This document shows, one piece after another, positions 5,732-41,651 of a stretch of 64,000 bases of DNA. The number at the start of each line of letters is the position of its first letter. Within the stretch, counting starts at the first letter, position 1. This DNA comes from Pseudomonadota bacterium (GTDB lineage Bacteria; Pseudomonadota; Gammaproteobacteria; Arenicellales; Poriferihabitantaceae), in contig JBCCGE010000001.1 of NCBI GenBank assembly GCA_039029455.1, positions 90,136 to 154,135 of the forward strand, written 5' to 3'. Both the position numbers and the translations under genes were made by a program. The notes under the pieces were generated by a model that saw nothing but the letters and a program-made list of their open reading frames with translations, was not told where the DNA came from and did no database searches.

Positions 5732-7206
5732 TCGCTCACCTGCCTGCGCTGGTTGTTCTGGTGCCACTGCTGGCAGCGCCAATATGTTTCATATTTTCAC
5801 GCTCACCCGCGATCGGCTGGGTGATTACGGTCGTGTCTTCGTGGGTTTCATTTGCCATTGCCTGTGTGATGGCTGTTACTCTGCTCAACGGGGGAGAAAT
5901 TCAGTATGTGTTTGGGGGCTGGGCACCACCCTGGGGAATAGAGTACGTTGTCGACCAGTTGAATCTGCTGGTGGTTCTCGTTGTTACAGGCGTAGCGGCT
6001 GTCATTTTTCCAGCAACGCTGAAAAGTGTTCGGCCAGAGGTTGCAAGTCATCAGTTACCCCTGTTTTTTGTCAGTTTGCTGTTGTGTTTTTCCGGCCTGC
6101 TGGGTATCGCCGTAACCGGTGACGCTTTCAACCTTTTTGTCTTCCTCGAAATTTCGTCGCTTTCCACATATACACTGATCAGCATGGGGAAAGATCGGCG
6201 CGCGCTGACGGCGGCCTTCAACTACCTGATCATGGGCACAATTGGTGCCACTTTTATCCTGATTGCGGTCGGCATACTTTATATGTTGACCGGTACTTTG
6301 AATATGGCGGACCTTGCTGTTCGACTGCCGTCACTGGGCGATTCGAGAGCACTGCAGGTTGCTTTCGCATTCACGATTGTCGGCGTTGGACTCAAGCTTG
6401 CGATGTTTCCGCTGCACTTGTGGTTGCCCAATGCATACGCTTATGCACCTTCAGCGGTGTCGGCATTCATTGCTGCGACCGCGACCAAAGTTGCGGTGTA
6501 CGTCATGATACGGTTTTTGTATTCGATATTTGGCGCCGAGTTTTCATTTTCTGAGATATTCGTGCAGTGGCTTCTGTTGCCGGTTTCGGTTTGCGCAATA
6601 TTGTTTACATCAGTAGTGGCGCTGTTTCAGCATGATGTAAAGCGATTGCTGGCGTATTCGTCTGTTGCACAGATCGGCTACATGCTTCTGGGTATCGCAT
6701 TGGTTAATCAGACCGGTCTGGCTGCCGCCCTGATCCATCTGTTCAACCATGCGTTGATGAAAGGCGCGCTTTTCCTTGCGGTGGCCGCCATGGTGTTTCG
6801 CGTTGGCAGCAGTCACGTCGATCAGCTTCGGGGTATTGGCAGGAAAATGCCATGGACTTCAGCGGCATTTGTTGCAGGTGGACTCAGTATCATCGGAGTC
6901 CCTGCGACGGTCGGGTTCGTCTCGAAATGGTATCTGGTGCTTGCCGCAATTGAAAACGGCTGGTGGTGGATGGCCGCGATTGTGCTGGTCGCATCGCTAA
7001 TTGCCGTAGTATATATCTGGCGCATCGTTGAGCTTGCTTACTTCGCAGATTCCGAGGCCAGCGAAACTGAGGTTAAAGAGGCGCCGTTGATTATTTTGAT
7101 TCCGATCTGGATGCTGGTCGCCAGCAATTTTTATTTCGGTATTCACAGTAGCGTCGTGACGCGATTCGCCGAAGGTGCGGCAGCAATGTTGTGGGGTCAA
7201 GGATAG
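5728..7206 (+). CDS. mrpD: Mrp antiporter subunit D (NuoN/ND2-like)
   Basis: DAFNLFVFLEI, KLAMFPLHLWLPNAY, KRLLAYSS, HALMKGALF. Confidence 0.9.
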   Translation: MIAHLPALVVLVPLLAAPICFIFSRSPAIGWVITVVSSWVSFAIACVMAVTLLNGGEIQYVFGGWAPPWGIEYVVDQLNLLVVLVVTGVAAVIFPATLKSVRPEVASHQLPLFFVSLLLCFSGLLGIAVTGDAFNLFVFLEISSLSTYTLISMGKDRRALTAAFNYLIMGTIGATFILIAVGILYMLTGTLNMADLAVRLPSLGDSRALQVAFAFTIVGVGLKLAMFPLHLWLPNAYAYAPSAVSAFIAATATKVAVYVMIRFLYSIFGAEFSFSEIFVQWLLLPVSVCAILFTSVVALFQHDVKRLLAYSSVAQIGYMLLGIALVNQTGLAAALIHLFNHALMKGALFLAVAAMVFRVGSSHVDQLRGIGRKMPWTSAAFVAGGLSIIGVPATVGFVSKWYLVLAAIENGWWWMAAIVLVASLIAVVYIWRIVELAYFADSEASETEVKEAPLIILIPIWMLVASNFYFGIHSSVVTRFAEGAAAMLWGQG

Positions 7207-7211
7207 GCGCT

Positions 7212-8666
7212 ATGCTGAATCTGCTCATTGCATTCTCCCTGGTCGTCCCTTTAATCGGGGCGGTCGGGATTTTGATTGCAGATAAGAAACCCAATTTGCG
7301 AGAAGCCTGCACGCTGCTGACGTCTGTGGTGTTGTTGTTCGTCGTGGTGAAGATCTTTCTTGCGCTTCGAGGTGGTGAAACCCCGGAGCTCACCTTGTTT
7401 GAACTGCTGCCAGGTCTGGAAATAAAGTTCACGGTCGAGCCGCTGGGGATGCTTTTCGCGCTCGTTGCCGCCATTTTATGGCCGGTCAACTCACTGTATT
7501 CAATCGGCTACATGCGCGGTAACGCCGAGAAGCATCAAACACGTTTCTATTTCTTTTTTGCCATTGCAATATTTGGCGCAATTGGGGTCGCGTTTGCCGG
7601 AAACCTGCTGACACTGTTCCTGTTCTACGAACTGTTGACGTTGTCCACGTTTCCACTGGTTACCCACAAGGGCAATGACAGCGCGAAATCGGGTGGAAGA
7701 GTTTATCTGGGTATTTTGATCTCCACGTCAATCGGCCTGCTGCTGCCCGCGATAATCTGGGTCTGGGAATTGGCGGGCACGACCGATTTTCAAGCCGGGG
7801 GGGTAGTACCGCAATATGTTGAAGGCGGAACGGTTTTTGTGCTCGCGATGCTGTTTGTTTTTGGAATCGGCAAAGCAGGCGTCATGCCGGTGCATCGATG
7901 GTTGCCTGCTGCGATGGTGGCGCCAACACCTGTCAGTGCGTTACTGCACGCAGTAGCTGTCGTAAAGGCCGGCGTATTTAGCGTAGTCAAAGTCGTTGTC
8001 TATGTATTTGGCATCGACACTCTGGGTGCAGAACCATCAGTAGACTGGCTGCTCTGGTTTGCGCTTTTTACAATTGTTGCTGCATCCACAGTTGCTTTAC
8101 GACAGGACAACTTAAAGAAACGACTGGCGTATTCCACAATCAGTCAGTTGTCTTATGTCGTTATGGGTGCACTTATTCTGGTGCCGTTGTCTGTCACCGG
8201 GGCAGCTCTGCATATCATCGCCCACGCCTTTGGAAAAATCACACTGTTTTTTGCCGCAGGATCGATTTACACCAGTAGTAAAAAAACTGAAATCAGTCAA
8301 TTGAATGGTATTGGGCGACGAATGCCGTGGACTATGGCAGCGTTTACCGTAGGTGCACTGTCGATGATCGGTATTCCTCCGGCCGCCGGGTTTCTTTCAA
8401 AATGGTACTTACTGTCCGGCGCAATCGCAGCTGATCAGTATATTGCTGTATTGGTTATATTTATTTCGACTTTGCTGAATACAGCATACTTCGCGCCGAT
8501 CGTATACGCGGCTTATTTTAAACGCGATCGCTCTGATACGATGCTGAACTATGGCGAGGCACCATTACCTGCGGTAGTCGCACTCTGTTTTACTGCGTTG
8601 CTGACTATCACCCTGTTTTTTTTCCCGCAAACCGTATTTGAACTGATTCAAATGATCGAAACATGA
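7212..8666 (+). CDS. Second MrpD/A-like antiporter subunit
   Basis: FLFYELLTL, KAGVMPVHRWLPAAMVAPTPVSALLHA, KKRLAYST; ATG 7212 chosen. Confidence 0.85.
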   Translation: MLNLLIAFSLVVPLIGAVGILIADKKPNLREACTLLTSVVLLFVVVKIFLALRGGETPELTLFELLPGLEIKFTVEPLGMLFALVAAILWPVNSLYSIGYMRGNAEKHQTRFYFFFAIAIFGAIGVAFAGNLLTLFLFYELLTLSTFPLVTHKGNDSAKSGGRVYLGILISTSIGLLLPAIIWVWELAGTTDFQAGGVVPQYVEGGTVFVLAMLFVFGIGKAGVMPVHRWLPAAMVAPTPVSALLHAVAVVKAGVFSVVKVVVYVFGIDTLGAEPSVDWLLWFALFTIVAASTVALRQDNLKKRLAYSTISQLSYVVMGALILVPLSVTGAALHIIAHAFGKITLFFAAGSIYTSSKKTEISQLNGIGRRMPWTMAAFTVGALSMIGIPPAAGFLSKWYLLSGAIAADQYIAVLVIFISTLLNTAYFAPIVYAAYFKRDRSDTMLNYGEAPLPAVVALCFTALLTITLFFFPQTVFELIQMIET

Positions 8667-8929
8667 TTAACGATGAGGATAAACACTGGCTTTACCGATC
8701 CACTAGTTTGCCAAAACTTTGGATGATCCAGATTTTGATTCTGGTGATAGCGGTCATTCCGGAATTTTTTGTTCATCATCACCCTCATTTTGAGCAGGAG
8801 GGTGTCGCGATCGATACGTCGTTCGGTTTTTTTGCCTGGTACGGCTTTCTGACCTGTGCTGCTATGGTGGTGGGTGCCAAGATACTGGGGATTTTTCTGA
8901 AACGGGAAGACTCGTATTACGATGACTGA
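8663..8929 (+). CDS. Small two-TM membrane protein inside the mrp operon
   Basis: Overlaps both neighbours; two hydrophobic stretches; GF.AWYGF motif. Confidence 0.75.
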   Translation: MINDEDKHWLYRSTSLPKLWMIQILILVIAVIPEFFVHHHPHFEQEGVAIDTSFGFFAWYGFLTCAAMVVGAKILGIFLKREDSYYDD

Positions 8930-10610
8930 TTTACTGATTCCACCTGCGTTTCTGCTTGTCCTGGCAGGTCTGCTGTTGCCGCTGTTACACCATCGAATGC
9001 GACAGGCGACCGTTGTGATTTTACCGCTGGGGGTTCTGGGGTTCATCTGGTCACTGGATCCGGGCGCGTATTTGTCCGTCGAGTTTATGCAGTATGAACT
9101 GTCGTTGTTCAATGTGACCGCGACCGGACGGCTGTTCGCGACTGTTTTCTCCATCATGCTTTTTGCCGGTGGTGTATTTGCCTTGCACCAGGCGAAAACC
9201 CTCGAATTGGCTGCGGCCTTTGTTTACGGAGGCTCTGCAATTGGAGTCTGTTTTTCGGGTGATCTGATCAGTCTCTTTATTTACTGGGAGATTATGGCTC
9301 TGGGTTCCACGGCGGTGTTGTGGGCTGCCGGGACTGAACGAGCTTATGCCGCAAGCTTCAGATATCTGCTGATCCATTTTCTGGGTGGCGTAATTTTAAT
9401 GGCCGGGATTGCCTGGTATGTGGTGAAGAGCGGAAGTATCGAGTTTGGACCAATCTCGCTGTCTGATCCGGGTGCGGTGCTGATTCTCATTGGTTTTCTG
9501 ATCAATGCGGGCGCGCCCCCGCTCTCAGCCTGGATTGCCGACGCCTACCCGGAAGCGAGTCCAAGCGGTACCGTGTTTCTCTCGGCCTTCACGACGAAAA
9601 CAGCGGTTTACGTGCTGATGGTTGCGTTTGCAGGTGCGGAAATACTCATCTACATCGGGCTGTATATGGTTTTCTACGGCATCATCTATGCCCTTCTTGA
9701 GAACGATATGCGTCGAATTCTGGCGTACAGTATTGTGAACCAGGTGGGCTTCATGGTGTGCGCGATTGGAATTGGAACGGAGCTTGCGCTGAACGGCGCT
9801 GCAGCCCATGCATTTGCTCACATTATCTACAAGGCCCTGTTGCTGATGTCGGCTGGCAGTGTGTTGATGATGGCCGAACGACGCAAGTGTTCCGAGCTCG
9901 GCGGCCTGTTTCAGACTATGCCAGTGACAGCGTTAAACGGTATTGTCGGCGCACTGGCGATTTCCGCATTTCCTTTTACATCGGGGTTTGTAACTAAATC
10001 GCTCGAGTCCGCCGCAGCCGCTGATGCCGGACTGGTTGTGGTCTGGTTCTGTTTGATGGCAGCGTCCGCCGGCGTGTTTTTACATGCGGGAATCAAGTTT
10101 CCGTGGTTTGTGTTTTTTCAGAAAGACTCTGGTCTCAGACCTTCGGATCCACCATTGAATATGAAGCTAGCGATGTGGTTGTTCTCGTTTTTCTGTATCG
10201 CTATTGGCGTTTTTCCAGCGGTGCTCTACGGAATATTGCCTTTTCCTGTGGACTACAAGCCGTATACAAGTTACCACCTCGTCAGTCAGTTTCAGCTTCT
10301 TCTGTTTGCAGGCTTCGCTTTTTTTGCAATGCTTCCATTGATGAAACGCACCCTGACGATCAGTCTGGACTTCGACTGGTTTTATCGGCGCTTCTTGCGG
10401 ATAGTGGCCAGCGAGTTTACGTTAAAGTCCGGTCTGATCGGTTCAAGGCTGGAGCAGACGGTTACGCGTCGAATCGAGCAGTTTATCGCGCGCTTGTATC
10501 AGCATCACGGACCCCATGGTGTACTCGCCCGAACCTGGCCCAGTGGGGGAATGGTGCTCTGGGTGGCGGTCATGCTCGCAGGATTGATTGTCGCCTCAGC
10601 ACTGTTTTAG
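8922..10610 (+). CDS. Third MrpD/A-like antiporter subunit
   Basis: YWEIMA, DAYPEASPSGTVFLSAFTTK, RRILAYS, HIIYKALL. Confidence 0.85.
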   Translation: MTDLLIPPAFLLVLAGLLLPLLHHRMRQATVVILPLGVLGFIWSLDPGAYLSVEFMQYELSLFNVTATGRLFATVFSIMLFAGGVFALHQAKTLELAAAFVYGGSAIGVCFSGDLISLFIYWEIMALGSTAVLWAAGTERAYAASFRYLLIHFLGGVILMAGIAWYVVKSGSIEFGPISLSDPGAVLILIGFLINAGAPPLSAWIADAYPEASPSGTVFLSAFTTKTAVYVLMVAFAGAEILIYIGLYMVFYGIIYALLENDMRRILAYSIVNQVGFMVCAIGIGTELALNGAAAHAFAHIIYKALLLMSAGSVLMMAERRKCSELGGLFQTMPVTALNGIVGALAISAFPFTSGFVTKSLESAAAADAGLVVVWFCLMAASAGVFLHAGIKFPWFVFFQKDSGLRPSDPPLNMKLAMWLFSFFCIAIGVFPAVLYGILPFPVDYKPYTSYHLVSQFQLLLFAGFAFFAMLPLMKRTLTISLDFDWFYRRFLRIVASEFTLKSGLIGSRLEQTVTRRIEQFIARLYQHHGPHGVLARTWPSGGMVLWVAVMLAGLIVASALF

Positions 10611-10627
10611 ATTGAAGGGTTGCGCAT

Positions 10628-11536
10628 TCAGAACTTTGCTCCGCGTCGAACACCGCTACGATTTGGCAGCGATCGAGCAACAATCAGCCCACAGCCTGCG
10701 ATCAGCAGGATGCCGAACCAGGCGATCGGATTGGGCAGAGTTCCAAACATAACGAGTCCGAATACGACACCCGCCAGAATTTCAAAGTAAGTGAATGGTG
10801 CCAGAACGGACGCTTCCGCCTTGGCGAAACCATAGACTATGCAGGTCTGGTTGACAGCCCCGGTAATTGCGATTAGCACCAACCAGCCCAGATGCTCGGA
10901 ACTGACGGGCTGCCATATAAAGGGAATGGTGACTGACAAAATCAAAGTGGCAATGATTGCACCCCAAAATGAGGTCAGTAACGGATGAGAAATAGCACCC
11001 AGCTTACGGTTCAGGATCATCTGAAAAGCGACGATAACTGCACAAAGAAACACAAACAACGTGCCCGTGTTTACGCCATCAAGCCGGGGTTGCATGACCA
11101 GCAGGACGCCAAAAAAACCGCCGACGACACCGAGCCATCCGACAACCCTCACACGTTCGCCCAGAAACAGCGTGGCCATTACAGTCAGCAGGAACGGATA
11201 GGCATACAGGATAGCTATAGCGTCCGCAAAGTCGATTGTTCTTGCACCGACAACAAAGCATACAGTTTCGGAGGCCAGGCTGATGCCTCTTACAATCTGT
11301 ATCGATGGCCGGCGGACCTCGTAACAGCCACGGCCAAACTTGCGCCAAACGATCGGTAGCAGAATGATGGCAAAGCCGAGAAATCGAAACCATGTGATCT
11401 GGAATGCGCTCAGCTCGTTGGACATGAGTTTCATCAGAGCTCCGGTGAATGCCGCGACACTGAGACCAAATATTGTAATCAGAATACCTGTGCGTGTTTG
11501 ATCAACTGGCTGTGTTTGCGGGTCGGTGCTTTTCAT
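10628..11536 (-). CDS. DMT/EamA family transporter
   Basis: About 10 TM segments, ITWFRF, FLGERV, LAPFTYFEI. Confidence 0.85.
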   Translation of the reverse strand: MKSTDPQTQPVDQTRTGILITIFGLSVAAFTGALMKLMSNELSAFQITWFRFLGFAIILLPIVWRKFGRGCYEVRRPSIQIVRGISLASETVCFVVGARTIDFADAIAILYAYPFLLTVMATLFLGERVRVVGWLGVVGGFFGVLLVMQPRLDGVNTGTLFVFLCAVIVAFQMILNRKLGAISHPLLTSFWGAIIATLILSVTIPFIWQPVSSEHLGWLVLIAITGAVNQTCIVYGFAKAEASVLAPFTYFEILAGVVFGLVMFGTLPNPIAWFGILLIAGCGLIVARSLPNRSGVRRGAKF

Positions 11537-12104
11537 AGTTGAGAACGCAGATACTTATCGTCGGTTTGCGCCAGTGGTCGATACAGCGCTGATTCAATCG
11601 AAACCATCGATGATAGTCATTCTGCGATCCCGGCCAACGCACTATGCCGGGGCGTCTGATCATCTATCGAATATCGATTGTGCGTTTGGGTGATTCTCCA
11701 GAATGCGGCGACTGCTAGCAACCATTGTTTAAGGGAGAATTGCAGAACCTGCCGACTGCAAACCCGACACGTATTCTGCAAAAAAGCGAAATTTTTGTGC
11801 CCCTATATTGCGGGCACCCTGATGTGGTTGAAGCAGTTTGCTCAGGTCAGCATTTGATCAGGAGACGCTGAAGCCTGACCTGGAAATTCGTTTTGCGAAA
11901 CAAAACATTGATGACAGCCTAAAACAGCAGATGACCGAAAAGGTCGAGACAATTTAGGTCGCTCTGATTTGTGCAAATCAGAGGTCCACTCAAATCTGTA
12001 TCCGCCTATTTATTTCGTTTATTGCGGCACTTCAGATTGCGAGCCATAAGCGGTGACTTTCGGATAAAGTATGTCTTTAAATTACCAACTATATCGTACT
12101 CTCA

Positions 12105-23985: not shown

Positions 23986-24218
23986 TATTAATTTTCGGAC
24001 GTATTAAATTGAATTGCCGAATTTGGTCCTGAAAGCCATTGGTATAAATGAATGACGATATGGAAAGCTGAATGGACCGTGGGAAACTCGTAAGGAAACA
24101 CTGGAGTTTCTTACTGATGTAACGCAAAAATTCATATCTATTGTATGGTTAAGTGTCAAAACAAGTGAGAAGAGCAGAAACTTGCGAAATCAAATTCCTA
24201 AAACGTTGTTGGTCTAAC

Positions 24219-24887
24219 ATGGCTTTCTATTGCCTGAAAAATGAGTCCAGAAAATTCATTATCTGTGTTAATCCAAAATGTGGTTGCACCACAATCAGAG
24301 ACTGGTTTGTTCACACTCTTGAAGAATCGCTATCTGAAGTCGACAGGAGTTGCGGCCGGTACATGATACCGCCCGAAACGCTCCATTTGTATCCGGACTA
24401 CTTCAAAGCTCTCGTTGTTCAGAATCCGTTGCGCCGCCTGGTCAGCTTCTATTACAAATTCGTCGTGACTGGCAGCGAACGGTGGTGTCACGCAGATCAG
24501 GAGGCAATTCTATCTCTGGAGAATCATACCTTCCGACAGTTCATTAGAGTTCTGACAGATCTTGCGATTCGAAGTTGTAGTTTTCAACATCACCTTGTGT
24601 CGCAAACGGAACAGATCAAGATGATACCCTTTGACGAGGTTATTAAAACTAAAGACATCGCGTTTGGTTTGAAACGCATTAACCAGCGTCTGGGTATTGT
24701 GTACGAACCTTTGTGTTTAAACGCATCCGGGTATTCAGACGCCAGAGGTAGAAATGTCTGCGACATTACTCCTGATGAACTGTCGACATTGCCTGTTTAT
24801 TCGTATGATCAATTCTATGATTCGGCGCTAAGAGAAATGGTCTCGGCTCTCTATGCGGATGATATTCACTACTATGAGTCAATCTGA
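24219..24887 (+). CDS. Sulfotransferase family 2 protein
   Basis: NPKCGCTT (5'-PSB-like), VVQNPLRRLVSFY (3'-PB-like), LY..DI C-terminal motif; ATG 24219 chosen. Confidence 0.7.
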   Translation: MAFYCLKNESRKFIICVNPKCGCTTIRDWFVHTLEESLSEVDRSCGRYMIPPETLHLYPDYFKALVVQNPLRRLVSFYYKFVVTGSERWCHADQEAILSLENHTFRQFIRVLTDLAIRSCSFQHHLVSQTEQIKMIPFDEVIKTKDIAFGLKRINQRLGIVYEPLCLNASGYSDARGRNVCDITPDELSTLPVYSYDQFYDSALREMVSALYADDIHYYESI

Positions 24888-26918: not shown

Positions 26919-28997
26919 ATGGTGCAATCAGGAAGACAGCTTATGTTTTGGAGACAGTCCGTAAGGTATTTGCTTTGCATACTCGGAGCGTTGGTTTTTT
27001 TACAGGGTGTGGCGCATGCAAACACTGGCGAACCGCCTCGACTTTTGAAAGAAACTCGCACTCAGAAATCAGCGATACCAGCCGTCACTCTCCAGGCGAT
27101 TGATGCGTCGGCATTGAGAAGTGCTGAGGCGGCCAAGTCGATAGGTTCAACGGTGCGAACCAAAATCGTGAGCTTTGCGGTGACAGAAGAAACCTCACTT
27201 GCACCCCATACCCATGGCGCCTGGACGGATGTATCTGACGGACGAATCTGGCGTCTCAGAATTGTGGGTCCGGGCTCCACAGATTTGAATTTAGGATTTA
27301 CCGACTTCTTTCTGCCGAAAGGAGCAACGCTGCATGTTTATGACCCGGTGAGCGGTTATTTCCAGGGCCCCTATACGGCAGATCAGAATCAGTCTTATCG
27401 TCAACTCTGGACGCCCGTAATACCGGGTAATGAAACGGTCGTGGAAGTATTTGTGCCAACTTCTGAGCTGGGGCTTCTGGAGCTCGAATTGGGTCAGGTT
27501 GGCAAAGGGTTTCTTGACGTTTTCAATCAAGGGTTGTCTTCGTTACAAAAGCAGGGATCATGCAACATTGACGTTGCGTGTCCTCTCGGCGATGGGTGGC
27601 GCGATGAAATTCGCAGCGTTGCTGTGTACGGCCTCAACGGTTCAACATTTTGTACTGGAACATTGATCAACAATGTCACCCAGGATTTCACACCATATTT
27701 TCTGACCGCAGACCACTGCAATATCAGCAGTCAAAACGCACCATCGGTCGTCGTATACTGGAATTTTGAATCTCCCAATTGCGGCGACCTGGACAACGGG
27801 TCGTTGAGTCAGTCGACATCAGGGGCCACACTACGGGCGCAGAATACGGACAATGACATGTCCCTGCTCGAACTTAGTGAGCAACCGAATACTCTCTACA
27901 ATGTCTATTACGCGGGTTGGGATGCAAGCGCATTGTCGCCCACCTCATCCATCGCAATCCACCATCCCAATACGGATGAAAAGGCAATATCATTTAACGA
28001 TGATGCCTTGACCACGACAGACAGCTGCATCCTTTTTTCCCAAACTATCAGTGATACCCATTGGAACGTCGACAACTGGGAGCAGGGCACGACCGAACCC
28101 GGATCGTCGGGGTCCGGGCTGTTCGATCCGGCAACTCAGCGTCTGATCGGCTATTTGTCCGGTGGCTCAGCCTCGTGTTTGAACACTGCGGGCAACGATT
28201 GTTATGGAAAGTTTTCAGTGGGCTGGAGCAACGGCTTATCGACCTGGCTTGATCCAAACAATACCGGAACACTATTTGTTGATGGCGCCAATCCTCCGTC
28301 GGGTCCGGCTATAGATGAAACCAGAGTCGGAGACTCAAGGACACTCTCATCGGCGACACTATCGGAGTGGTTTTACGGCAAAACAGAGTTGCCCGATGGA
28401 TTGAGTGCTCTTACTGTCTCGCTCACCCCTGTCAATGGTGACCCGAATTTGTACACGCGAGCAAATCAGCTTCCGGATCTTTCGAACTATGATTGCCGTC
28501 CGCTCGCAGGTGGTGCAAGCGCGGAAGTATGTGCCGAAGAGAACCCACCCGAAGGCAGTCACTTTTGGGGCATCAACACTTCAGCGGCGTATACAGATGC
28601 GGAGCTTCAGATTACCGGGTCTGTGAATCCGGGCGATCGTGTCACCGGTATTTCGGAGTCCAGTACGGGATTCTGGACCATCTACGAATTGTCTCTGCCT
28701 GAAGCGATCGATGACTTCAGCATTACTATGGACGCAACCGGCGCAACAGGCGATCCCGATTTGTATGTGCGCTATAACGCAGAACCGACGTTGGATAACT
28801 ACGATTGTCGACCTTTTCAGGCGTCCGGCATCTCGGAAACATGTGAGATTACAAGCCCACAGGCCGGAATCTACTACATTGGAATAAATCCTTTCTCTGC
28901 GTATTCCAACGTCGTCTTGACGATTGGAAACAGCAGTGATCTTTTGTGTTTCCCGATTATCACTGTAAGTACGCGAATAGCCGTCATCTGTATCTGA
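26919..28997 (+). CDS. Secreted lysyl endopeptidase-like (Achromobacter protease I type) serine protease with two PPC domains
   Basis: LTADHC, DMSLLEL and TEPGSSGSGL triad; two GDP[ND]LY...NYDCRP PPC repeats; signal peptide ending AHA. Confidence 0.85.
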   Translation: MVQSGRQLMFWRQSVRYLLCILGALVFLQGVAHANTGEPPRLLKETRTQKSAIPAVTLQAIDASALRSAEAAKSIGSTVRTKIVSFAVTEETSLAPHTHGAWTDVSDGRIWRLRIVGPGSTDLNLGFTDFFLPKGATLHVYDPVSGYFQGPYTADQNQSYRQLWTPVIPGNETVVEVFVPTSELGLLELELGQVGKGFLDVFNQGLSSLQKQGSCNIDVACPLGDGWRDEIRSVAVYGLNGSTFCTGTLINNVTQDFTPYFLTADHCNISSQNAPSVVVYWNFESPNCGDLDNGSLSQSTSGATLRAQNTDNDMSLLELSEQPNTLYNVYYAGWDASALSPTSSIAIHHPNTDEKAISFNDDALTTTDSCILFSQTISDTHWNVDNWEQGTTEPGSSGSGLFDPATQRLIGYLSGGSASCLNTAGNDCYGKFSVGWSNGLSTWLDPNNTGTLFVDGANPPSGPAIDETRVGDSRTLSSATLSEWFYGKTELPDGLSALTVSLTPVNGDPNLYTRANQLPDLSNYDCRPLAGGASAEVCAEENPPEGSHFWGINTSAAYTDAELQITGSVNPGDRVTGISESSTGFWTIYELSLPEAIDDFSITMDATGATGDPDLYVRYNAEPTLDNYDCRPFQASGISETCEITSPQAGIYYIGINPFSAYSNVVLTIGNSSDLLCFPIITVSTRIAVICI

Positions 28998-34095: not shown

Positions 34096-34851
34096 TCAGG
34101 CTGGTGCAGCCGGACCGGGAGGGCCTTTCGGACCAGAAAAACCTGGGTCGCCGCCCAAAATACCGGGCGTACCCTGAGCTCCGGGTTCTCCGACGGGTCC
34201 TGGAGGCCCGGGCTGAAACACTGTTGCTCCCGGAGGGCAGGCGACTCCGGGTGCGCCGGGGGGTCCCGGAAAACCGGGATCACCACCGGGACCTTTTGAG
34301 GCTGCCGTCGACCCGCTCGCACTTAGGTCGTCGCCAGGAATTCCCGGAGGTCCCGGAGGTCCTGGGGGGCCCGGAGGGGCGGCATTTGCACCTGTGTCGC
34401 CGGTAGGACCCCGAGCACCTATTTCGCCCTTTACGCCTGGAAACATTGGGTTTCCACCCACTCCCGGTTGACCGGGAGAGCCCGGAGGTCCCTGGGGTCC
34501 TGGGGAGCCGGTGCAAACCACAGGAGGTTCCGTGGTAGTGGTTGTTACGGTTGTTGTCGGTGCTGCCGTGGTGGTGGTACCGCCGCCGGGCTGACCACCA
34601 CCGCCGGTAGTCTGAGCGTGAGCGGGCAGGACAATCGAGGACACCAGAGGCTTGTTCCAGTGAAGTCCACTGGCGCCTGATGCACCCACCGCGATGATCG
34701 CGGACACCGTTTTTCTCCGACGGTTTGCGGACTCCTGCGGGCTAGGTACGATTTTGTGTGCAGATTGCGATGTGTCAGGAGACTCATTCGCATCTGCAGT
34801 TTTACCGGGATTCCTGATCTCGTCGTTATTGTTCCATTTTTCTTTACTCAT
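34096..34851 (-). CDS. Collagen-like protein 1: twin-arginine-like leader, Thr-rich linker, interrupted Gly-X-Y repeats
   Basis: RRRKTV...[15 protein letters not shown] leader; GSP GPQ GPP..., [27 protein letters not shown]; ATG 34851 chosen. Confidence 0.85.
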
Positions 34852-35017
34852 CTGTAAATCCTCACTTTGGGAACATCTTTGTCTCAAGAGGTTTCATTCT
34901 TATGCGTCAACTTCAGCTCGGGTCGCTGCATTGATGTATAGAATACGACGTTTTGATCATAGCACGATTGGGCGATAAGGTATGATTACGGCCCGATCGC
35001 AATGTGAAATTCGTACT

Positions 35018-35602
35018 ATGTATTCACAACCCCTGTTTCACAATTTCACCGGTGTGATACCCGATGCTGTGTGCGATATCATAGTTGCTGAAGGAGAGTC
35101 ACTGCAGCAACGCAAAGGCACGGTGTACTCTGACGATCAGTTCAAGGTCGACAAGTCCATGCGGGTGACTGATGTTGGATTCTGGGATGAGTGGCATTGG
35201 GTCAACGGATTGATGACGCACTACATGGCAATGGCCAACAGAAGTTTCTGGCAATACGAGCTGGTGGTATCTCAGGGGGTTCAATACGGGTCATACGGTG
35301 TTGGCCATTTTTACGATTGGCATCACGACACGTTTTCGGAACCTATGGTGGATTCCAGCAGTGGCAATCAAACACGGCTCAACCGGTTTTTGAGCGCGTC
35401 ATTGCTATTGTCCGATGAGAACACGTATTCAGGCGGTGAGCTCTGTTTCATGGATCAGGAGGGTCGGACCTACACTGTTGAAGGTGGCCGCACAAAGGGC
35501 AGCATTGTTGTCTTTCCGTCGTCACTGCGCCACAAGGTTACACCGGTAGACAACGGTACCAGGCATTCCTGTGTCTCATGGATTTTGGGGGTCGTAGACT
35601 GA
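35018..35602 (+). CDS. Fe(II)/2OG oxygenase, prolyl-4-hydroxylase/PKHD-like
   Basis: YDWHHD (HxD), YSGGEL, VFPSSLRHKVTPV..GTRHS.VSW; ATG 35018 chosen (track 34982). Confidence 0.85.
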   Translation: MYSQPLFHNFTGVIPDAVCDIIVAEGESLQQRKGTVYSDDQFKVDKSMRVTDVGFWDEWHWVNGLMTHYMAMANRSFWQYELVVSQGVQYGSYGVGHFYDWHHDTFSEPMVDSSSGNQTRLNRFLSASLLLSDENTYSGGELCFMDQEGRTYTVEGGRTKGSIVVFPSSLRHKVTPVDNGTRHSCVSWILGVVD

Positions 35603-35645
35603 ACACCGACACCAGTGGTTTGAACTCAAAATCTTTTGAAAATAA

Positions 35646-37586
35646 TTGACTCAGCCGTTTACAACCTATGTCATTAATCGTGAGGATGCTCACGATCGGT
35701 GGCGTCGCATTGAGTCGGATCTGGGCGAGGTTGGAATTTACCCAACCCGAGTTAATGCGACCCTTGCAGAAAGCATCGATGACTCGTTCATGCGCGATGG
35801 TGAATGCTCCGTCATGCGGAAATGGCTGGATCCTTACACCGGGTTGTTGGTCAATACCGGCGAGATTGCCTGCTTATTGAGTCACCACAGTGTATGGCAG
35901 CAAATCGCAGCATCTGGAACAACCAGCATCGTTTTGGAGGACGATGCGTTGCTCGAAGCAGATTTTAATTCCAGACTGCAAGTCATAGGTCGCCTTCAAG
36001 AACAACACGATCTGGATCTGATCTATCTTGGATACAAACCACTGGGTCCGATCTCTGATCAGCGAGATGGACTTTGTGATCCGGGATACTGTTACTGGAC
36101 TGTGGGCTATATGCTGTCCCCAACCGGCGCGCGAAAACTGCTTGCTACGACCATCCTGAGAAACATACTGCCTGCCGATGAATTTTTGCCGGCGATGTTT
36201 AATCGGCACCCCAACGCACTCGTCCAGCATGTTTTCAAAGATTTTGAAAAACTGGGCGTTCGCGCTGCAGACCCGCCCATCGTACGACCTGACTTCCAGG
36301 TGGAAAGCCAGATCAGTACACAGCCGGAATACGTATATCATTTCATTGTACTGACGGTGGCCTCAGATCCTGACAAGGCTGCGTTGCTCACAGAATCACT
36401 GGATCGATTTTCAGTGCCGTATCGTGTTTTGGGATGCGGGCAGAGCTGGCGAGGCGGCGATATGACCGGCACCGGCGGCGGACAAAAAATAAATCTGCTC
36501 CGGGAAGCTCTGGGTGATCTTGACGACGACACGGTCGTGCTTTTTATGGACGGCTACGACACCCTGGTGAATGCGAACAGCGCATCGCTGCTGCGAATGT
36601 ATGCCAGATACGATCACGACATCGTGTTTGCGGCCGAAAAGTCCTGTTGGCCTGACGGTTCTCTCGCGAGTCAATATCCCGAGTCTCCCACCGAATATCG
36701 ATATCTGAATAGTGGGAGTTTTATCGGCAGCGCCGGTGCATTAAAAAAACTTGCGGCTGAATCCATAGACGACTCTGAGGACGATCAGCTCTACTTCACC
36801 AGAGCGTTTTTGAGTGGCGATCACGATATGGCCGTGGATATCGGTTGTAACCTCTTTCAAACACTGAGTTTTTCCGAAAACGATGTCATCCTGACGGGCC
36901 GCATCATCAAAAATATCATCACTGACACCCTACCTCTCGTGCTTCATGGTAATGGCGGTGAATCGTCCAAGCTGCGGTATCAGGAGATCGGAACCAAACT
37001 GCAGATTGCTGCTCATTATCCACTGTATACCGACCTCTACACCTATGAACGAGCGGCTAACCCTGAAAACATATGGTCAGTGCCATCGCCTGATATTCTC
37101 CAGCTAACATTCTGGACCGACGGATTTTGCCGCCTTCTGATTGAAACCGCAGAGTCTTTAGACGAATGGCAGTCCCTTCCTGGTGATAATGTTCCAGGCC
37201 AGGAGTTGCGGTTGCGGCGCATCAGCGAAAAGCTGTATCAAAATGTCGTTGCCCATTTCGAATGGCGTGTCGTTCCCTGGCTGCAGCAGCACTGGTTGCC
37301 GTATTCGTATTGCGGAATTAAAGATATATTTCTGATCAAATACTCCGCCAGCACTCAGGCTGAATTGGATCTTCACAACGATCGCGCGCACGTGAGTGCC
37401 TCCATCAAACTAAACGACCAGTATCGCGGAGGAGTGCTTGAGTTTCCGCGACAGCAGTTCACGAATCAAAACGTTCCTGTGGGATCGATGATCGTCTGGC
37501 CGTCTTCACTGACACATCCTCATCGATCAACCCCTGTCGAACAGGGCACAAAGTACAGTCTTACGTTCTGGACGCAAGAGCAGTGA
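35646..37586 (+). CDS. Fusion: GT25 (COLGALT-like) + PLOD-type glycosyltransferase + PLOD-type lysyl hydroxylase
   Basis: GEIACLLSH, LEDD, YWTVGYMLS..GARKLL, LPADEFLPAMF (GT25); WRGGDM..GGGQK, FMDGYD, AEKSCWP, YLNSG.FIG, DDQL (PLOD GT); HND...GG..F...THPH...G.KY (LH). Confidence 0.85.
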   Translation: MTQPFTTYVINREDAHDRWRRIESDLGEVGIYPTRVNATLAESIDDSFMRDGECSVMRKWLDPYTGLLVNTGEIACLLSHHSVWQQIAASGTTSIVLEDDALLEADFNSRLQVIGRLQEQHDLDLIYLGYKPLGPISDQRDGLCDPGYCYWTVGYMLSPTGARKLLATTILRNILPADEFLPAMFNRHPNALVQHVFKDFEKLGVRAADPPIVRPDFQVESQISTQPEYVYHFIVLTVASDPDKAALLTESLDRFSVPYRVLGCGQSWRGGDMTGTGGGQKINLLREALGDLDDDTVVLFMDGYDTLVNANSASLLRMYARYDHDIVFAAEKSCWPDGSLASQYPESPTEYRYLNSGSFIGSAGALKKLAAESIDDSEDDQLYFTRAFLSGDHDMAVDIGCNLFQTLSFSENDVILTGRIIKNIITDTLPLVLHGNGGESSKLRYQEIGTKLQIAAHYPLYTDLYTYERAANPENIWSVPSPDILQLTFWTDGFCRLLIETAESLDEWQSLPGDNVPGQELRLRRISEKLYQNVVAHFEWRVVPWLQQHWLPYSYCGIKDIFLIKYSASTQAELDLHNDRAHVSASIKLNDQYRGGVLEFPRQQFTNQNVPVGSMIVWPSSLTHPHRSTPVEQGTKYSLTFWTQEQ

Positions 37587-37883
37587 CGAAACATCCGCTG
37601 AGCATATTCGGTAGCAGGAAATTAATCAGTTTTGACGAGAGATTTCAGAAATTTATGCGGCACTGAAATATAAGGTGGCACGATAACTCCGGAAATTGAC
37701 GAGTGCTGGAAACTCTCTTCTGTCTTCCCAACAGTGATATGAACCGCTGTGCGTTACCTGTGGCAGCGTTTTCCGAAGGTATTTATCCGCGGTCTGTCTC
37801 GCATCCACAATCACTGTCGGGCTGCGGTCGCATTTGTTGTGTTACTCTTAAGAATGATGCGTATCTTGTAGTGAGAGTAAGAA

Positions 37884-38381
37884 ATGGGGAATTCAAACAA
37901 CGGTAAAAAGGCGCTGTTGGGCGGGGGGCAGATTCAGCGTCGAAAAACCGTGACCGCAGTAGTCGGAACCGGCGCTGCTTTAGGCGTTGCCTGGAAAAAA
38001 CCGGTGGTGTCCACGGTAATCTTGCCCGCCCACGCTGCCACAACCGATTCCGGCGGAGATCCCGGCACAGGGGTGACTACGTTGCCACCGGTTACAACAA
38101 CGTTAGCGGTAACAACTTGTCCTCCCGGAGTCCCAGGTAATCCTGGGCCTCCCGGACCCCCGGGAATGCCTGGGGAGACTGGATCTCCGGGGGCGCCTGG
38201 AGCGCCCGGAGGACCCGGTGGACCGGGTTCACCCGGATTACCGGGCCCTCCCGGATCACCTGGTTCTCCACCGCCGGGCTTCCCTGATTGTCCGGCTGGA
38301 CCTCCAGGACCCGCTGGACCTCCCGGACCACCTGGTCCACCGGGACCGCCTGGGCCTCCAGGACCACCGATTACCGACTGA
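37884..38381 (+). CDS. Collagen-like protein 2: twin-arginine-like leader and GPP-rich repeats
   Basis: RRKTV...[15 protein letters not shown] leader; 16 + 8 uninterrupted Gly-X-Y triplets. Confidence 0.85.
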
Positions 38382-39834: not shown

Positions 39835-40387
39835 TATCTAATCCCGTTCAGAAACTGCAGGACTGCACAGTTCGCGAAGAATCAACCCTAAAATTCATTT
39901 TGCCCCACATCCCGAGGTAACCGACTTTACTGGCGTAGGGAATCATTCCCGGTTGCACACTGTAGTGCAACCCCCGTCAACCCGAAAGGTTTGTGATTAT
40001 GATCGCGATTAGATCGAAAAGTTTTGTCAATTTTATGTTTTGAACGGCCCGGTTCGGTCGATTTTTGAATCTAAGGAGACTGTTGGCAAAAAACCACTAT
40101 GGCTTTTCGAATGAAATTTGGTTTTATGCAATGCGTCGATACCCACATATGCCGGCACAGGTGTCATGAAAACATTCGCGCGAGCCATGTTGCACTCTTG
40201 ATTGTCGTATTGGCCGATTTGGTCAGTAAAGTTTCTAGAGTTGCCTACAACAATCCATTGAGTCGGATTACCAGTTATGCTGCGCCGTCTTTTCCGGTTC
40301 AAATAAATATGTCCCGGTTTTCTCAAAGATCGCCTCTCAAAAGGGCGCTATACTGCCCAGGCAAATCAAACAGTGAGGGCGAGACGA

Positions 40388-40867
40388 ATGAGTAAATCCA
40401 AAAGAACACTTCTTAAATCGGCATCGATCATGGGTGCCGGTGGGTTGGTTGCAAGCTGGCAGACGCCGGTGGTTCAGTCGGTTGTACTGCCGGCTCATGC
40501 ACAGACCACTGATCCGACAGCAACAACCACACCAGCACTGCCGGCGGCACCACTGGCTTTTTCACAGCAGGGGGCTATCTGCACCTCACTGTGTGCGATA
40601 GGCGTGGATGACGCGCAATACAATACACCGGTTCTGGAAAATCAGTCGGCTGAATCGATCACGGTTACAGGGATTCAGTTGTCGAATCCGGATCACTATG
40701 TTGAAACCATGCTGCCGCTCATGATTTCGAGCGCCGATAACGTCATTTGCGGATTCTCTATTCTGGTCAAAGATTCGGGAAATCTGTGCGGTGATGCCAT
40801 CTCTGGCGGGACTATGACATTGCAGCTCGAAGGCTATCAGGACTTTTCCTTCAATATCCCGGCTTAA
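40388..40867 (+). CDS. Hypothetical exported protein sharing the collagen-type leader
   Basis: KRTLLK...[18 protein letters not shown], Thr/Pro linker, four Cys, beta-rich body; ATG 40388 chosen. Confidence 0.75.
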   Translation: MSKSKRTLLKSASIMGAGGLVASWQTPVVQSVVLPAHAQTTDPTATTTPALPAAPLAFSQQGAICTSLCAIGVDDAQYNTPVLENQSAESITVTGIQLSNPDHYVETMLPLMISSADNVICGFSILVKDSGNLCGDAISGGTMTLQLEGYQDFSFNIPA

Positions 40868-41099: not shown

Positions 41100-41651
41100 T
41101 CAGGTACTTAGAACTCTTTTGAATGCCAGTTTAAAAAAATCCTGACTTGCCAGGTGGATGCAATCGATTTCCAATGGCTGAGTCAATTCAATACGAGTCT
41201 CTTCAGAACCTTCGTTTGCTGGGGTAAATCCGATAATTACTGGTTCTATTTGTACATTTCTTGGGTCGAGTGCTGGGTAGGTTGTGGTGACGCTTACGCT
41301 AAAAGACGCCGAATAGGTGCCCGACTCTGTAGTTACCTCGCCATCATAGGTACCCCCCAGACACCCCAACTGAGATACGGGCGTATTAAACACGCCCGAA
41401 AAATCCGATCGTAAGAACTCAACTGATGCATCGAGACCACTAAACCGGGGATCTCCGGCGATTGAAACCGCAACTGAGTACGATAATCCATCTGGCAGAG
41501 TCGTTTCATACACGGAATAGTTACAGAGAACATCCAAAGTAATACAGAGTGGCGTGAGTGCAGCGTGGGTGGGAAGCTGGATGGCTGCAACTATTGGAGG
41601 CGTCCATACAGAGATTGAAAGTGCTTTCGTGATTAGCCTTCGATCCATCAC
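41100..41651 (-). CDS. Hypothetical exported protein with a shortened version of the same leader
   Basis: DRRLITK...WTPPIVAAIQLPTHAALT; beta-rich Ser/Thr body with Cys. Confidence 0.7.
   Translation of the reverse strand: MMDRRLITKALSISVWTPPIVAAIQLPTHAALTPLCITLDVLCNYSVYETTLPDGLSYSVAVSIAGDPRFSGLDASVEFLRSDFSGVFNTPVSQLGCLGGTYDGEVTTESGTYSASFSVSVTTTYPALDPRNVQIEPVIIGFTPANEGSEETRIELTQPLEIDCIHLASQDFFKLAFKRVLST

Follow-up and report, generated by a model that had tools for sequence, protein, structure and literature searches.

Can a bacterium build collagen of the animal type? The question is raised by a locus in a 64,000-nucleotide stretch of contig JBCCGE010000001.1 (hereafter the window, from whose first base positions are counted), in which two collagen-like genes enclose the gene of a small 2-oxoglutarate (2OG)/Fe(II) oxygenase and that of an enzyme fusing a GT25 domain, a PLOD-type glycosyltransferase (PLOD-GT) domain and a lysyl hydroxylase (LH)-like domain. 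To our knowledge, glucosyl-galactosyl-5-hydroxylysine (Glc-Gal-Hyl) and hydroxyproline (Hyp) at the Y position of Gly-X-Y triplets are taken as hallmarks of animal collagen, mimivirus being the sole documented exception. We consider it probable, though well short of certain, that we are dealing with a collagen-tailoring module, self-contained and equipped with its own substrates, which works by the mechanism proposed below. Its sequences suggest that "animal" collagen chemistry is also found in bacteria and marine phages. The genome (3.7 Mb in 203 contigs, ~91% complete) is that of a marine, probably sponge-associated gammaproteobacterium resembling Ca. Poriferihabitaceae (Arenicellales); by kinship it belongs to one family with assembled genomes named Candidatus Poriferihabitaceae or Arenicellales.

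Two collagen-like genes bracket two candidate collagen-modifying enzymes

The initial annotation, read from the letters of the window, described two collagen-like genes that bracket exactly two enzyme genes. This arrangement holds: all four open reading frames (ORFs) lie where they had been placed (Table 1), Pfam agrees with their assignments, and no further ORF of note lies between the four genes. Across the 3.7-Mb genome, we found no collagen genes beyond the two at the locus and no PLOD-type gene beyond the fusion. With its two collagen genes, the only ones in the genome, standing on either side of the only PLOD-type gene, the bracketing lies far beyond chance, and we estimate the probability that both collagen genes would fall within about 2.5 kb of the sole PLOD-type gene to be of the order of 1e-6.

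The fusion enzyme combines three catalytic domains in one chain

Pfam resolved the fusion into PF01755 GT25 (residues 6-115, E 8.7e-18), PF25342 GT_PLOD (233-445, E 2.6e-60) and PF13640 (572-643, E 4.9e-8), and the domain order runs from GT25 (residues 1-215) through an LH3/PLOD-type glucosyltransferase (232-445) to an LH-like 2OG domain (466-646). Among sequences of the PDB, it matched LH3 (5.9e-45), mimivirus R699 (2.4e-35), COLGALT1 (9.8e-26) and the LH domain of mimivirus L230 (1.5e-8), with R655 also matching. An AlphaFold2 (AF2) model with a predicted local distance difference test (pLDDT) score of 88.3 superimposed in Foldseek on the LH3 glycosyltransferase (GT) domain (6WFV; template modelling score, TM, 0.87; root-mean-square deviation, rmsd, 1.9 A) and on COLGALT1 (rmsd 1.7 A). 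Pfam, PDB matches, motifs and the structure model thus agree with the earlier identification of a fused GT25/PLOD-GT/PLOD-LH enzyme, and the sequence likewise bears out that neither this enzyme nor the small oxygenase carries a signal peptide.

The GT25 domain aligns with the catalytic GT2 domain of COLGALT1, covering only residues ~339-529 of that protein, and shares with it the motif pairs (fusion/COLGALT1) VLEDDALLE/VFEDDLRFE, GEIACLLSH/GELGCFLSH, YWTVGY/YWTLAY and LPADEFLP/LPVDEFLP, keeping its Cys and its WT/DEF (Trp, Asp) positions. E98-D99-D100 constitutes the Mn motif of the fusion, in which E98 and D100 are invariant in an alignment of 24 relatives; the Glu-Asp-Asp Mn2+ motif of COLGALT1 is unusual and essential (PMC12003778, which also gives the roles of the motifs). 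Nothing lies N-terminal of the GT25 domain, and the GT1 domain of COLGALT1, which is non-catalytic and fold-stabilising, has no equivalent. In the PLOD-GT domain, FMDGYD, SCWPD, SEDDQLYF and LHGNG line up with the DxxD, Trp145, poly-Asp 187-191 and His253 of LH3, the roles of Trp145 and Asp190/191 having been described (PMC9546862). The accessory (AC) domain of LH3 also has no equivalent, the PLOD-GT and LH-like domains being joined by a linker of ~20 residues (445 to 466) that has no PF25238 match.

The C-terminal domain aligns its LHND and THPH with the HxD...H triad of LH3 and L230. Its sequence matches (L230, 1.5e-9; LH3, 1.4e-5; PiuC, 5e-3) place it closer to the LH domains of L230 and LH3 than to any prolyl 4-hydroxylase (P4H), and Foldseek likewise ranks L230 (TM 0.77, E 6e-13) ahead of the P4Hs (~1e-7). 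At the site that binds the C5-carboxylate of 2OG, the domain has Lys (GTKY) where LH3 has R729 (GTRY) and L230 has GKRY, and this Lys is the consensus of the fusion family. Collagen P4H uses Lys at its own 2OG-binding position, so by analogy the LH-like domain is probably still functional.

The small oxygenase has a prolyl hydroxylase-like fold

H114-x-D116, H184 and R194 of the small oxygenase are invariant across its family alignment, and the true start, judged from relatives, is likely near Met13. Its structure model (pLDDT 83.5) is closest in Foldseek to P. putida PPHD (TM 0.73), vCPH, algal P4H, PHD2 and B. anthracis P4H, and its family profile picks up P4Hs of algae and PBCV-1 at ~1e-8. 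The fold, the HxD...H...R set and the double-stranded beta-helix (DSBH) neighbours support the original description of a P4H-like 2OG oxygenase; by sequence, the protein is closest to PKHD-type proteins. The term "P4H-like" is thus justified at the level of fold and superfamily and no further.

The adjacent substrates are rich in proline and poor in lysine

Both collagen-like proteins exceed the PF01391 gathering cut-off of 27.2 bits (34.9 and 39.2 bits). Collagen 1 begins with a leader of 79 residues (RRRK at 44-47, predicted cut before Q), and its mature part of 172 aa consists of a Thr/Gly-rich linker followed by six short Gly-X-Y runs, each 4-7 triplets long, with Cys113 and Cys205 as the flanking cysteines; it has 23 X-Pro-Gly sites and three X-Lys-Gly sites (K141, K186 and K242). 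Collagen 2 has a leader of 51 residues (RRK at 19-21, predicted cut before A) and a mature part of 114 aa comprising a Thr-rich linker, Cys79, 16 triplets of Gly-X-Pro type, FPDC136PA and eight triplets ending in (GPP)6; it holds 23 X-Pro-Gly sites and no lysine. Each collagen segment of the two proteins has flanking cysteine (TTCPPG..., FPDCPAG...). Across the two, Y positions are 69% Pro and ~2% Lys, and a Pro-rich Y is an animal-like pattern, unlike that of typical bacterial collagens (PMC8968730).

This composition bears on the further claim that the locus encodes the full set for Hyp plus Glc-Gal-Hyl on these substrates. The enzymes are there, from the right families and with intact motifs; it is the Glc-Gal-Hyl part that becomes doubtful, with three sites as against 23 + 23 for proline. 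With collagen 2 free of lysine and collagen 1 offering only three X-Lys-Gly sites, the lysine branch is short of targets here. It is plausible, judging from these sequences, that proline hydroxylation dominates at the locus and that Glc-Gal-Hyl would be minor or absent.

Carried further, the same composition leads to an alternative in which the substrates of this lineage have become free of lysine and hydroxyproline is the main or sole product of the module; the LH-like and GT domains would then act on something other than Lys, for instance by hydroxylating Pro and glycosylating Hyp, or by glycosylating the Thr-rich linkers. The near absence of Lys at Y, the Thr-rich linkers ahead of both collagen domains, the P4H-type Lys at the 2OG site of the LH-like domain and its Pfam assignment to PF13640, a P4H-type family, would all fit. 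We nevertheless regard this alternative as unlikely. The Lys-for-Arg exchange is family-wide and includes phage enzymes whose partner fibres have 13-76% Lys at Y, the catalytic positions of COLGALT1 and LH3 are preserved in the GT25 and PLOD-GT domains, the C-terminal fold is nearer L230 than the P4Hs, and a related genome that bears an orthologue of the fusion has Lys-rich collagens.

Collagen genes accompany the enzymes in phages and sponge symbionts

In the protein collection searched, 64 relatives of the fusion could be detected, and scans yielded 52 loci in species-representative genomes and at least 531 confirmed loci in IMG/VR viral contigs. No closer relatives of the exact four-gene arrangement were found, the next-best protein in that collection being 49% identical. 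To quantify the pairing, we counted loci with GT25 and PLOD-GT and at least 5 kb of upstream sequence (n = 56), taking as collagen-like any ORF with at least eight triplets. A collagen-like ORF was present in 43 of these 56 loci, in most cases on the fusion's own strand and 1-3 kb upstream of it, versus 0 of 35 control loci that have only a PLOD-GT-like domain and are mostly from Bacteroidota. A usual lack of collagen neighbours had been named from the start as one outcome that would refute the initial annotation, and these counts do not refute it.

Most collagen-paired loci are marine phage tail-fibre modules or come from metagenome-assembled genomes (MAGs) of sponge symbionts, and in most related loci the gene immediately ahead of the fusion encodes a homologue of the small oxygenase. 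Phage S-CAM9 shows the order tail fibre, 2OG oxygenase(s), fusion, and in phage CRP-6 the fusion comes after the tail fibres; phage copies bear the annotation hypothetical or 2OG oxygenase. Lys at Y amounts to 13-76% in the partner collagens of phages and 7-29% in those of symbiont MAGs, and X-Lys-Gly sites, unlike in the window pair, are abundant in phage and symbiont partners and in the collagens of the same-family genome G010. Such Lys-rich partners fit lysine hydroxylation and glycosylation, making the window locus the outlier.

Within the bacterium's own family, the module occurs in several states. In two genomes (G002 and G014), collagen, LH, GT25-PLODGT and the small oxygenase are adjacent separate genes, and in G026 collagen, LH and GT25-PLODGT are adjacent without the small oxygenase. 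G010 encodes the fused, 49%-identical orthologue together with at least six collagen proteins that repeat the window layout of leader, Thr-linker, CPPG-collagen and FPxCPxG-collagen. These G010 collagens are Lys-rich and the small oxygenase is absent, whereas in the window the small oxygenase is present and the collagens are Pro-rich. Collagen genes occur in all five relatives with the enzymes versus 17 of 56 without them (Fisher p ~0.004).

Phylogenetic analysis placed the window and G010 enzymes in a clade of their own (SH-aLRT 98), apart from the clade of split symbiont enzymes (100) and the phage clade (99). This separation from the phage clade indicates that the fusion is not a recent phage insertion. 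It also bears on the possibility that the enzyme pair is left over from a phage tail-fibre module, or serves distant substrates, so that its position is meaningless and the collagens are exported unmodified, as Scl is. The number of homologues on viral contigs would suit such an origin, as would the setting of the G010 orthologue, which lies among insertion sequence (IS) elements and transposases, far from the collagen genes of that genome. That no RNA sequencing run holds the locus points the same way. Yet the window has no phage genes and ordinary chromosomal neighbours, the catalytic residues are all intact, the sole collagen genes flank the sole PLOD-type gene, and the window/G010 clade lies outside that of the phages; we judge this explanation improbable.

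Other domain arrangements were observed in passing. In the cultured actinomycete Streptomyces kronopolitis CGMCC 4.7323 (NZ_BMND01000001.1, locus L011, 8942-12558), a mini-collagen that is Pro-rich at Y occurs with a 478-aa fusion of PLOD-GT and LH, and GT25 is encoded by a gene of its own, which makes a third arrangement of the domains; its enzyme nests among phage sequences in the tree, and the strain offers a tractable experimental system. Three AT-rich, Asn-rich proteins, probably of giant viruses (P0016, 882 aa; P0046; P0049), combine GT25 with a full LH3-like GT-AC-LH, or carry PLOD-GT ahead of GT25. As far as these sequences tell, the domain set is one that has been shuffled repeatedly. 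G010, the closest relative genome, additionally has tandem collagen-like genes (L151 at G010:C9:1314000-1328000, L152 and L153) with (TTTAAP)n mucin-like linkers of up to ~600 aa, which in this array precede Cys-flanked, Lys-rich collagen segments.

The collagen leaders belong to a large family of predicted export signals

The substrates had also been assigned twin-Arg leaders. An RRK motif and an AHA cleavage box are present, but 47 ORFs of this genome share the leader, two of them non-collagen genes within the window, and profiles for twin-arginine translocation (Tat) miss both collagen leaders. Its consensus of ~40 aa comprises RRK.LK, a Gly/Ala-rich stretch and W-x-K-P-x-V-x-S-V-x-L-P-A-H-A / x-T-T (the slash marking the predicted cut), with a median RR-to-AHA distance of 37 aa across the family. 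After the leader box follow TT.SGGD.G.G and often a Thr/Pro linker; the mature parts are mostly 100-200 aa long and otherwise unrelated. Leader copies in the window lie at 34615-34851(-), 37884-38036(+), 40373-40867(+) and 41100-41651(-). The conserved leader box has no match among Pfam or NCBIfam models, and TatC is encoded in the genome. By sequence, the leader is best described as RR-containing, weakly Tat-like by profile and not specific to collagen.

A family of this size raises the possibility that the enzymes act on its other members, many of which carry Thr/Pro-rich linkers, or on the collagen of the sponge host. Host collagen would be out of reach, as the enzymes carry no export signal, and the partner conserved in phages and other genomes is the collagen repeat rather than the leader; beyond the two neighbours, the genome contains no collagen repeat. 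Either version seems to us very unlikely.

A PqqD-like ORF of the RiPP recognition element (RRE) type (C1:154773-154931(-), 39.4 bits) lies ~640 bases past the end of the window and near another leader-family ORF at ~C1:154305(-). Two more PqqD-like ORFs lie on contigs C54 and C68. These ORFs may bear on the leader as a recognition sequence.

Proposed mechanism and the evidence against it

From gene content, homology, motifs and recurrence, we infer the chemical steps, the sites at which they act, whether folding precedes export and a biological role as follows. The two small collagen-like proteins would be made with a long RR-containing leader. As the enzymes are without signal peptides, modification in the cytoplasm before export is the natural reading: there, on still-unfolded chains, the small P4H-fold oxygenase would hydroxylate Y-position prolines. 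At the three X-Lys-Gly sites of collagen 1, the C-terminal domain of the 646-aa enzyme would turn Lys into 5-hydroxylysine (Hyl), to which the GT25 domain would then attach beta-galactose and the PLOD-GT domain alpha-glucose. With hydroxyproline in place, the Gly-X-Pro stretches, short and interrupted as they are, would be able to fold into a stable triple helix. It would be stapled by the cysteines at the flanks, which would oxidise more easily after export. The leader would direct export, by a Tat-like route or by Sec, with cleavage after AHA. The product would be a matrix-like or adhesive fibre, surface-bound or secreted, and possibly a mimic of host collagen.

A bolder version, which we put forward only tentatively and hold to be less probable than not by a clear distance, is that the bacterium makes genuine animal-type collagen in its cytoplasm (Y-position Hyp, with Glc-Gal-Hyl where Lys occurs) by means of one small P4H and one trifunctional enzyme, and exports the modified, cysteine-stapled mini-collagen by a Tat-like route to bind or mimic sponge matrix; a large fraction of marine phages would have tail fibres decorated by the same chemistry, and the toolkit would not be an animal invention.

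Several observations weigh against a tailoring module with its own substrates. On the enzyme side, the Lys at the 2OG site means that the specificity of the LH-like domain could differ from that of LH3 and L230, and the best sequence matches of the small oxygenase, the PKHD-type PiuC and Sbal_3634, have no known substrate (the PiuC literature reports none). Comparing oxygenase-bearing with oxygenase-free loci after dereplication, we obtained a median Pro per triplet of 0.42 versus 0.22 (p 0.004, uncorrected; locus L014 was misclassified by the ORF-length filter, and its right class would strengthen the trend); when the comparison is confined to 8 phylogenetically independent pairs, significance is lost. 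On the substrate side, the Gly-X-Y runs are short and interrupted (4-16 triplets), neither collagen has a globular domain for trimerisation or an anchor, of which the missing trimerisation domain is the adverse point, and the few X-Lys-Gly acceptors (3 + 0) leave three of the four catalytic domains with little or nothing to act on in the adjacent proteins. The Tat profiles that miss the collagen leaders, PF10518 and TIGR01409, match one paralogue below cut-off. The distance between the G010 orthologue and its collagens counts here as well. In three IMG/VR loci (L057, L058 and L072, at ~7000-12000), the pair of oxygenase and fusion follows fibre-like proteins of 700-800 aa without collagen repeats, and in some phage lineages the enzymes may have non-collagen substrates. 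Finally, the sequencing runs with the locus comprise one DNA run ("marine metagenome") and zero RNA runs.

Comparison with known collagen-modifying systems

Human LH3/PLOD3 and COLGALT1 (GLT25D1; PDB 6FXK, 9EVJ, complex 8ZGC) take Lys through Hyl and Gal-Hyl to Glc-Gal-Hyl. The window enzyme resembles them in possessing all three catalytic domain types with their metal and donor motifs (EDD; DxxD, Trp, poly-Asp, His; HxD...H), here encoded next to collagen-repeat genes. It differs in being one cytoplasmic chain of 646 aa in the order GT25, PLOD-GT, LH; it is without AC domain, GT1 domain and endoplasmic reticulum (ER) signal, has Lys for Arg729 and stands beside local substrates that are nearly Lys-free.

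Mimivirus provides another non-animal set for collagen modification, with L230 (LH and Hyl glucosyltransferase), R699 (Gal-Hyl glucosyltransferase), the GT25-like R655 and collagens such as L71 (PMC9546862, PMC12279948, PMC5802723), and its enzymes are soluble in bacteria. Unlike the fused gene on a bacterial chromosome described here, the mimivirus genes are separate, belong to a eukaryotic virus and encode activities shown biochemically.

The small oxygenase shares its fold (TM 0.6-0.73) and its HxD...H...R set with the monomeric P4Hs vCPH (5C5T), Chlamydomonas P4H (2JIG/3GZE), B. anthracis P4H (3ITQ/5HV0) and PPHD (4IW3), and its gene adjoins predicted substrates rich in X-Pro-Gly; it is only 15-20% identical to these enzymes, its nearest sequences being PiuC and Sbal_3634. 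Phages S-CAM9, S-PRM1 and S-8S53 (Synechococcus) and CRP-6 (Roseobacter) share the three-domain fusion at 32-36% identity over 91-99% of its length, often with the small oxygenase and a collagen-repeat fibre upstream. Their fibres differ in being long and leaderless, with Pro at X and Lys/Thr/Gln at Y, and the window enzyme belongs to a separate clade.

Like streptococcal Scl1/Scl2 and Bacillus BclA, which are exported to the cell surface, the window proteins are bacterial Gly-X-Y proteins. Scl is unmodified and has a trimerisation domain and an LPXTG anchor, and BclA is Thr-glycosylated by unrelated enzymes (reviewed in PMC8968730); the window proteins, by contrast, are rich in Pro at Y like animal collagen, have Cys flanks and carry no globular domain or anchor.

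Homologues of the enzymes are on record beyond animals, but the literature we searched has no description of bacterial or phage modules that pair PLOD/GT25 enzymes with collagen, PMC12279948 stating only that some bacteria have collagen-modifying enzymes. The proposal that no bacterial equivalent had been described calls for qualification: the module is widespread in marine phages and sponge-symbiont MAGs, though neither annotated nor described in that literature. If true, a bacterial and phage version would shift where collagen chemistry is thought to have arisen and would give the biology of sponge symbionts and phage hosts a new kind of surface molecule. Three predicted Lys-modifying activities in one soluble chain without a signal, together with a monomeric P4H-like enzyme, are candidate tools for a long-standing problem, the production in E. 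coli of recombinant collagen with proper hydroxylation and glycosylation. The Pro-rich, nearly Lys-free substrate pair would be useful for separating the role of the P4H from those of the LH and GT domains, and the locus connects the module with a large group of exported proteins that share its leader.

Genomic setting of the locus

Table 1. Features of the locus and two leader-bearing genes nearby, in window positions
Feature	Position	Strand	Details
Collagen-like protein 1	34096..34851	-	251 aa from ATG 34851; PF01391 E 1.3e-8 (Pfam, ORF 34096-34887)
Divergent intergenic region, collagen 1/oxygenase	34852..34981		Presumed site of both promoters
2OG/Fe(II) oxygenase, small, cytoplasmic	34982..35602	+	206 aa; PF13640 2OG-FeII_Oxy_3 E 8e-16
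Three-domain fusion enzyme	35646..37586	+	646 aa; TTG start, 43 nt past the oxygenase stop
Collagen-like protein 2	37884..38381	+	165 aa; PF01391 E 5.8e-10
Non-collagen leader paralogue	40373..40867	+	Leader KRTLLK...WQTPVVQSVVLPAHA/QTT; context only
Non-collagen ORF with degenerate leader	41100..41651	-	Leader ...WTPPIVAAIQLPTHA; context only

Collagen 1 has an alternative start at TTG 34887, the ATG being likelier. A promoter scan of the divergent intergenic region returned nothing above shuffled expectation and no convincing sigma-70 consensus, and no Rfam family was found between 33 and 42 kb of the window. Two antisense ORFs, 38092-38367(-) and 34104-34406(+), were rejected as genes, being shadows of the Gly/Pro-rich repeats. 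That the collagen ORFs are themselves antisense or low-complexity artefacts was rejected in view of their family-typical leader, their Pfam scores above cut-off and the homologous architecture in G010.

The flanking genes of the window are ordinary chromosomal ones, encoding an MscS channel, TauD, a fatty-acid hydroxylase, an adenylate cyclase, a fructosamine kinase and a glutathione S-transferase (GST), and Pfam detected no phage-like genes in the window. A prophage origin was rejected on the grounds that the window is without phage genes and the fusion falls outside the phage clade of the tree.

Sets of sulfotransferases and dioxygenases predicted to act on bacterial collagen-like proteins were reported by Iyer et al. 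2010 (PMC2938197) and differ from the present sets. A gene of the Sulfotransfer_2 family (24153-24887, +) and a gene for a secreted, trypsin-like protease that bears a PPC domain (26919-28997, +) lie 7-10 kb upstream of the locus.

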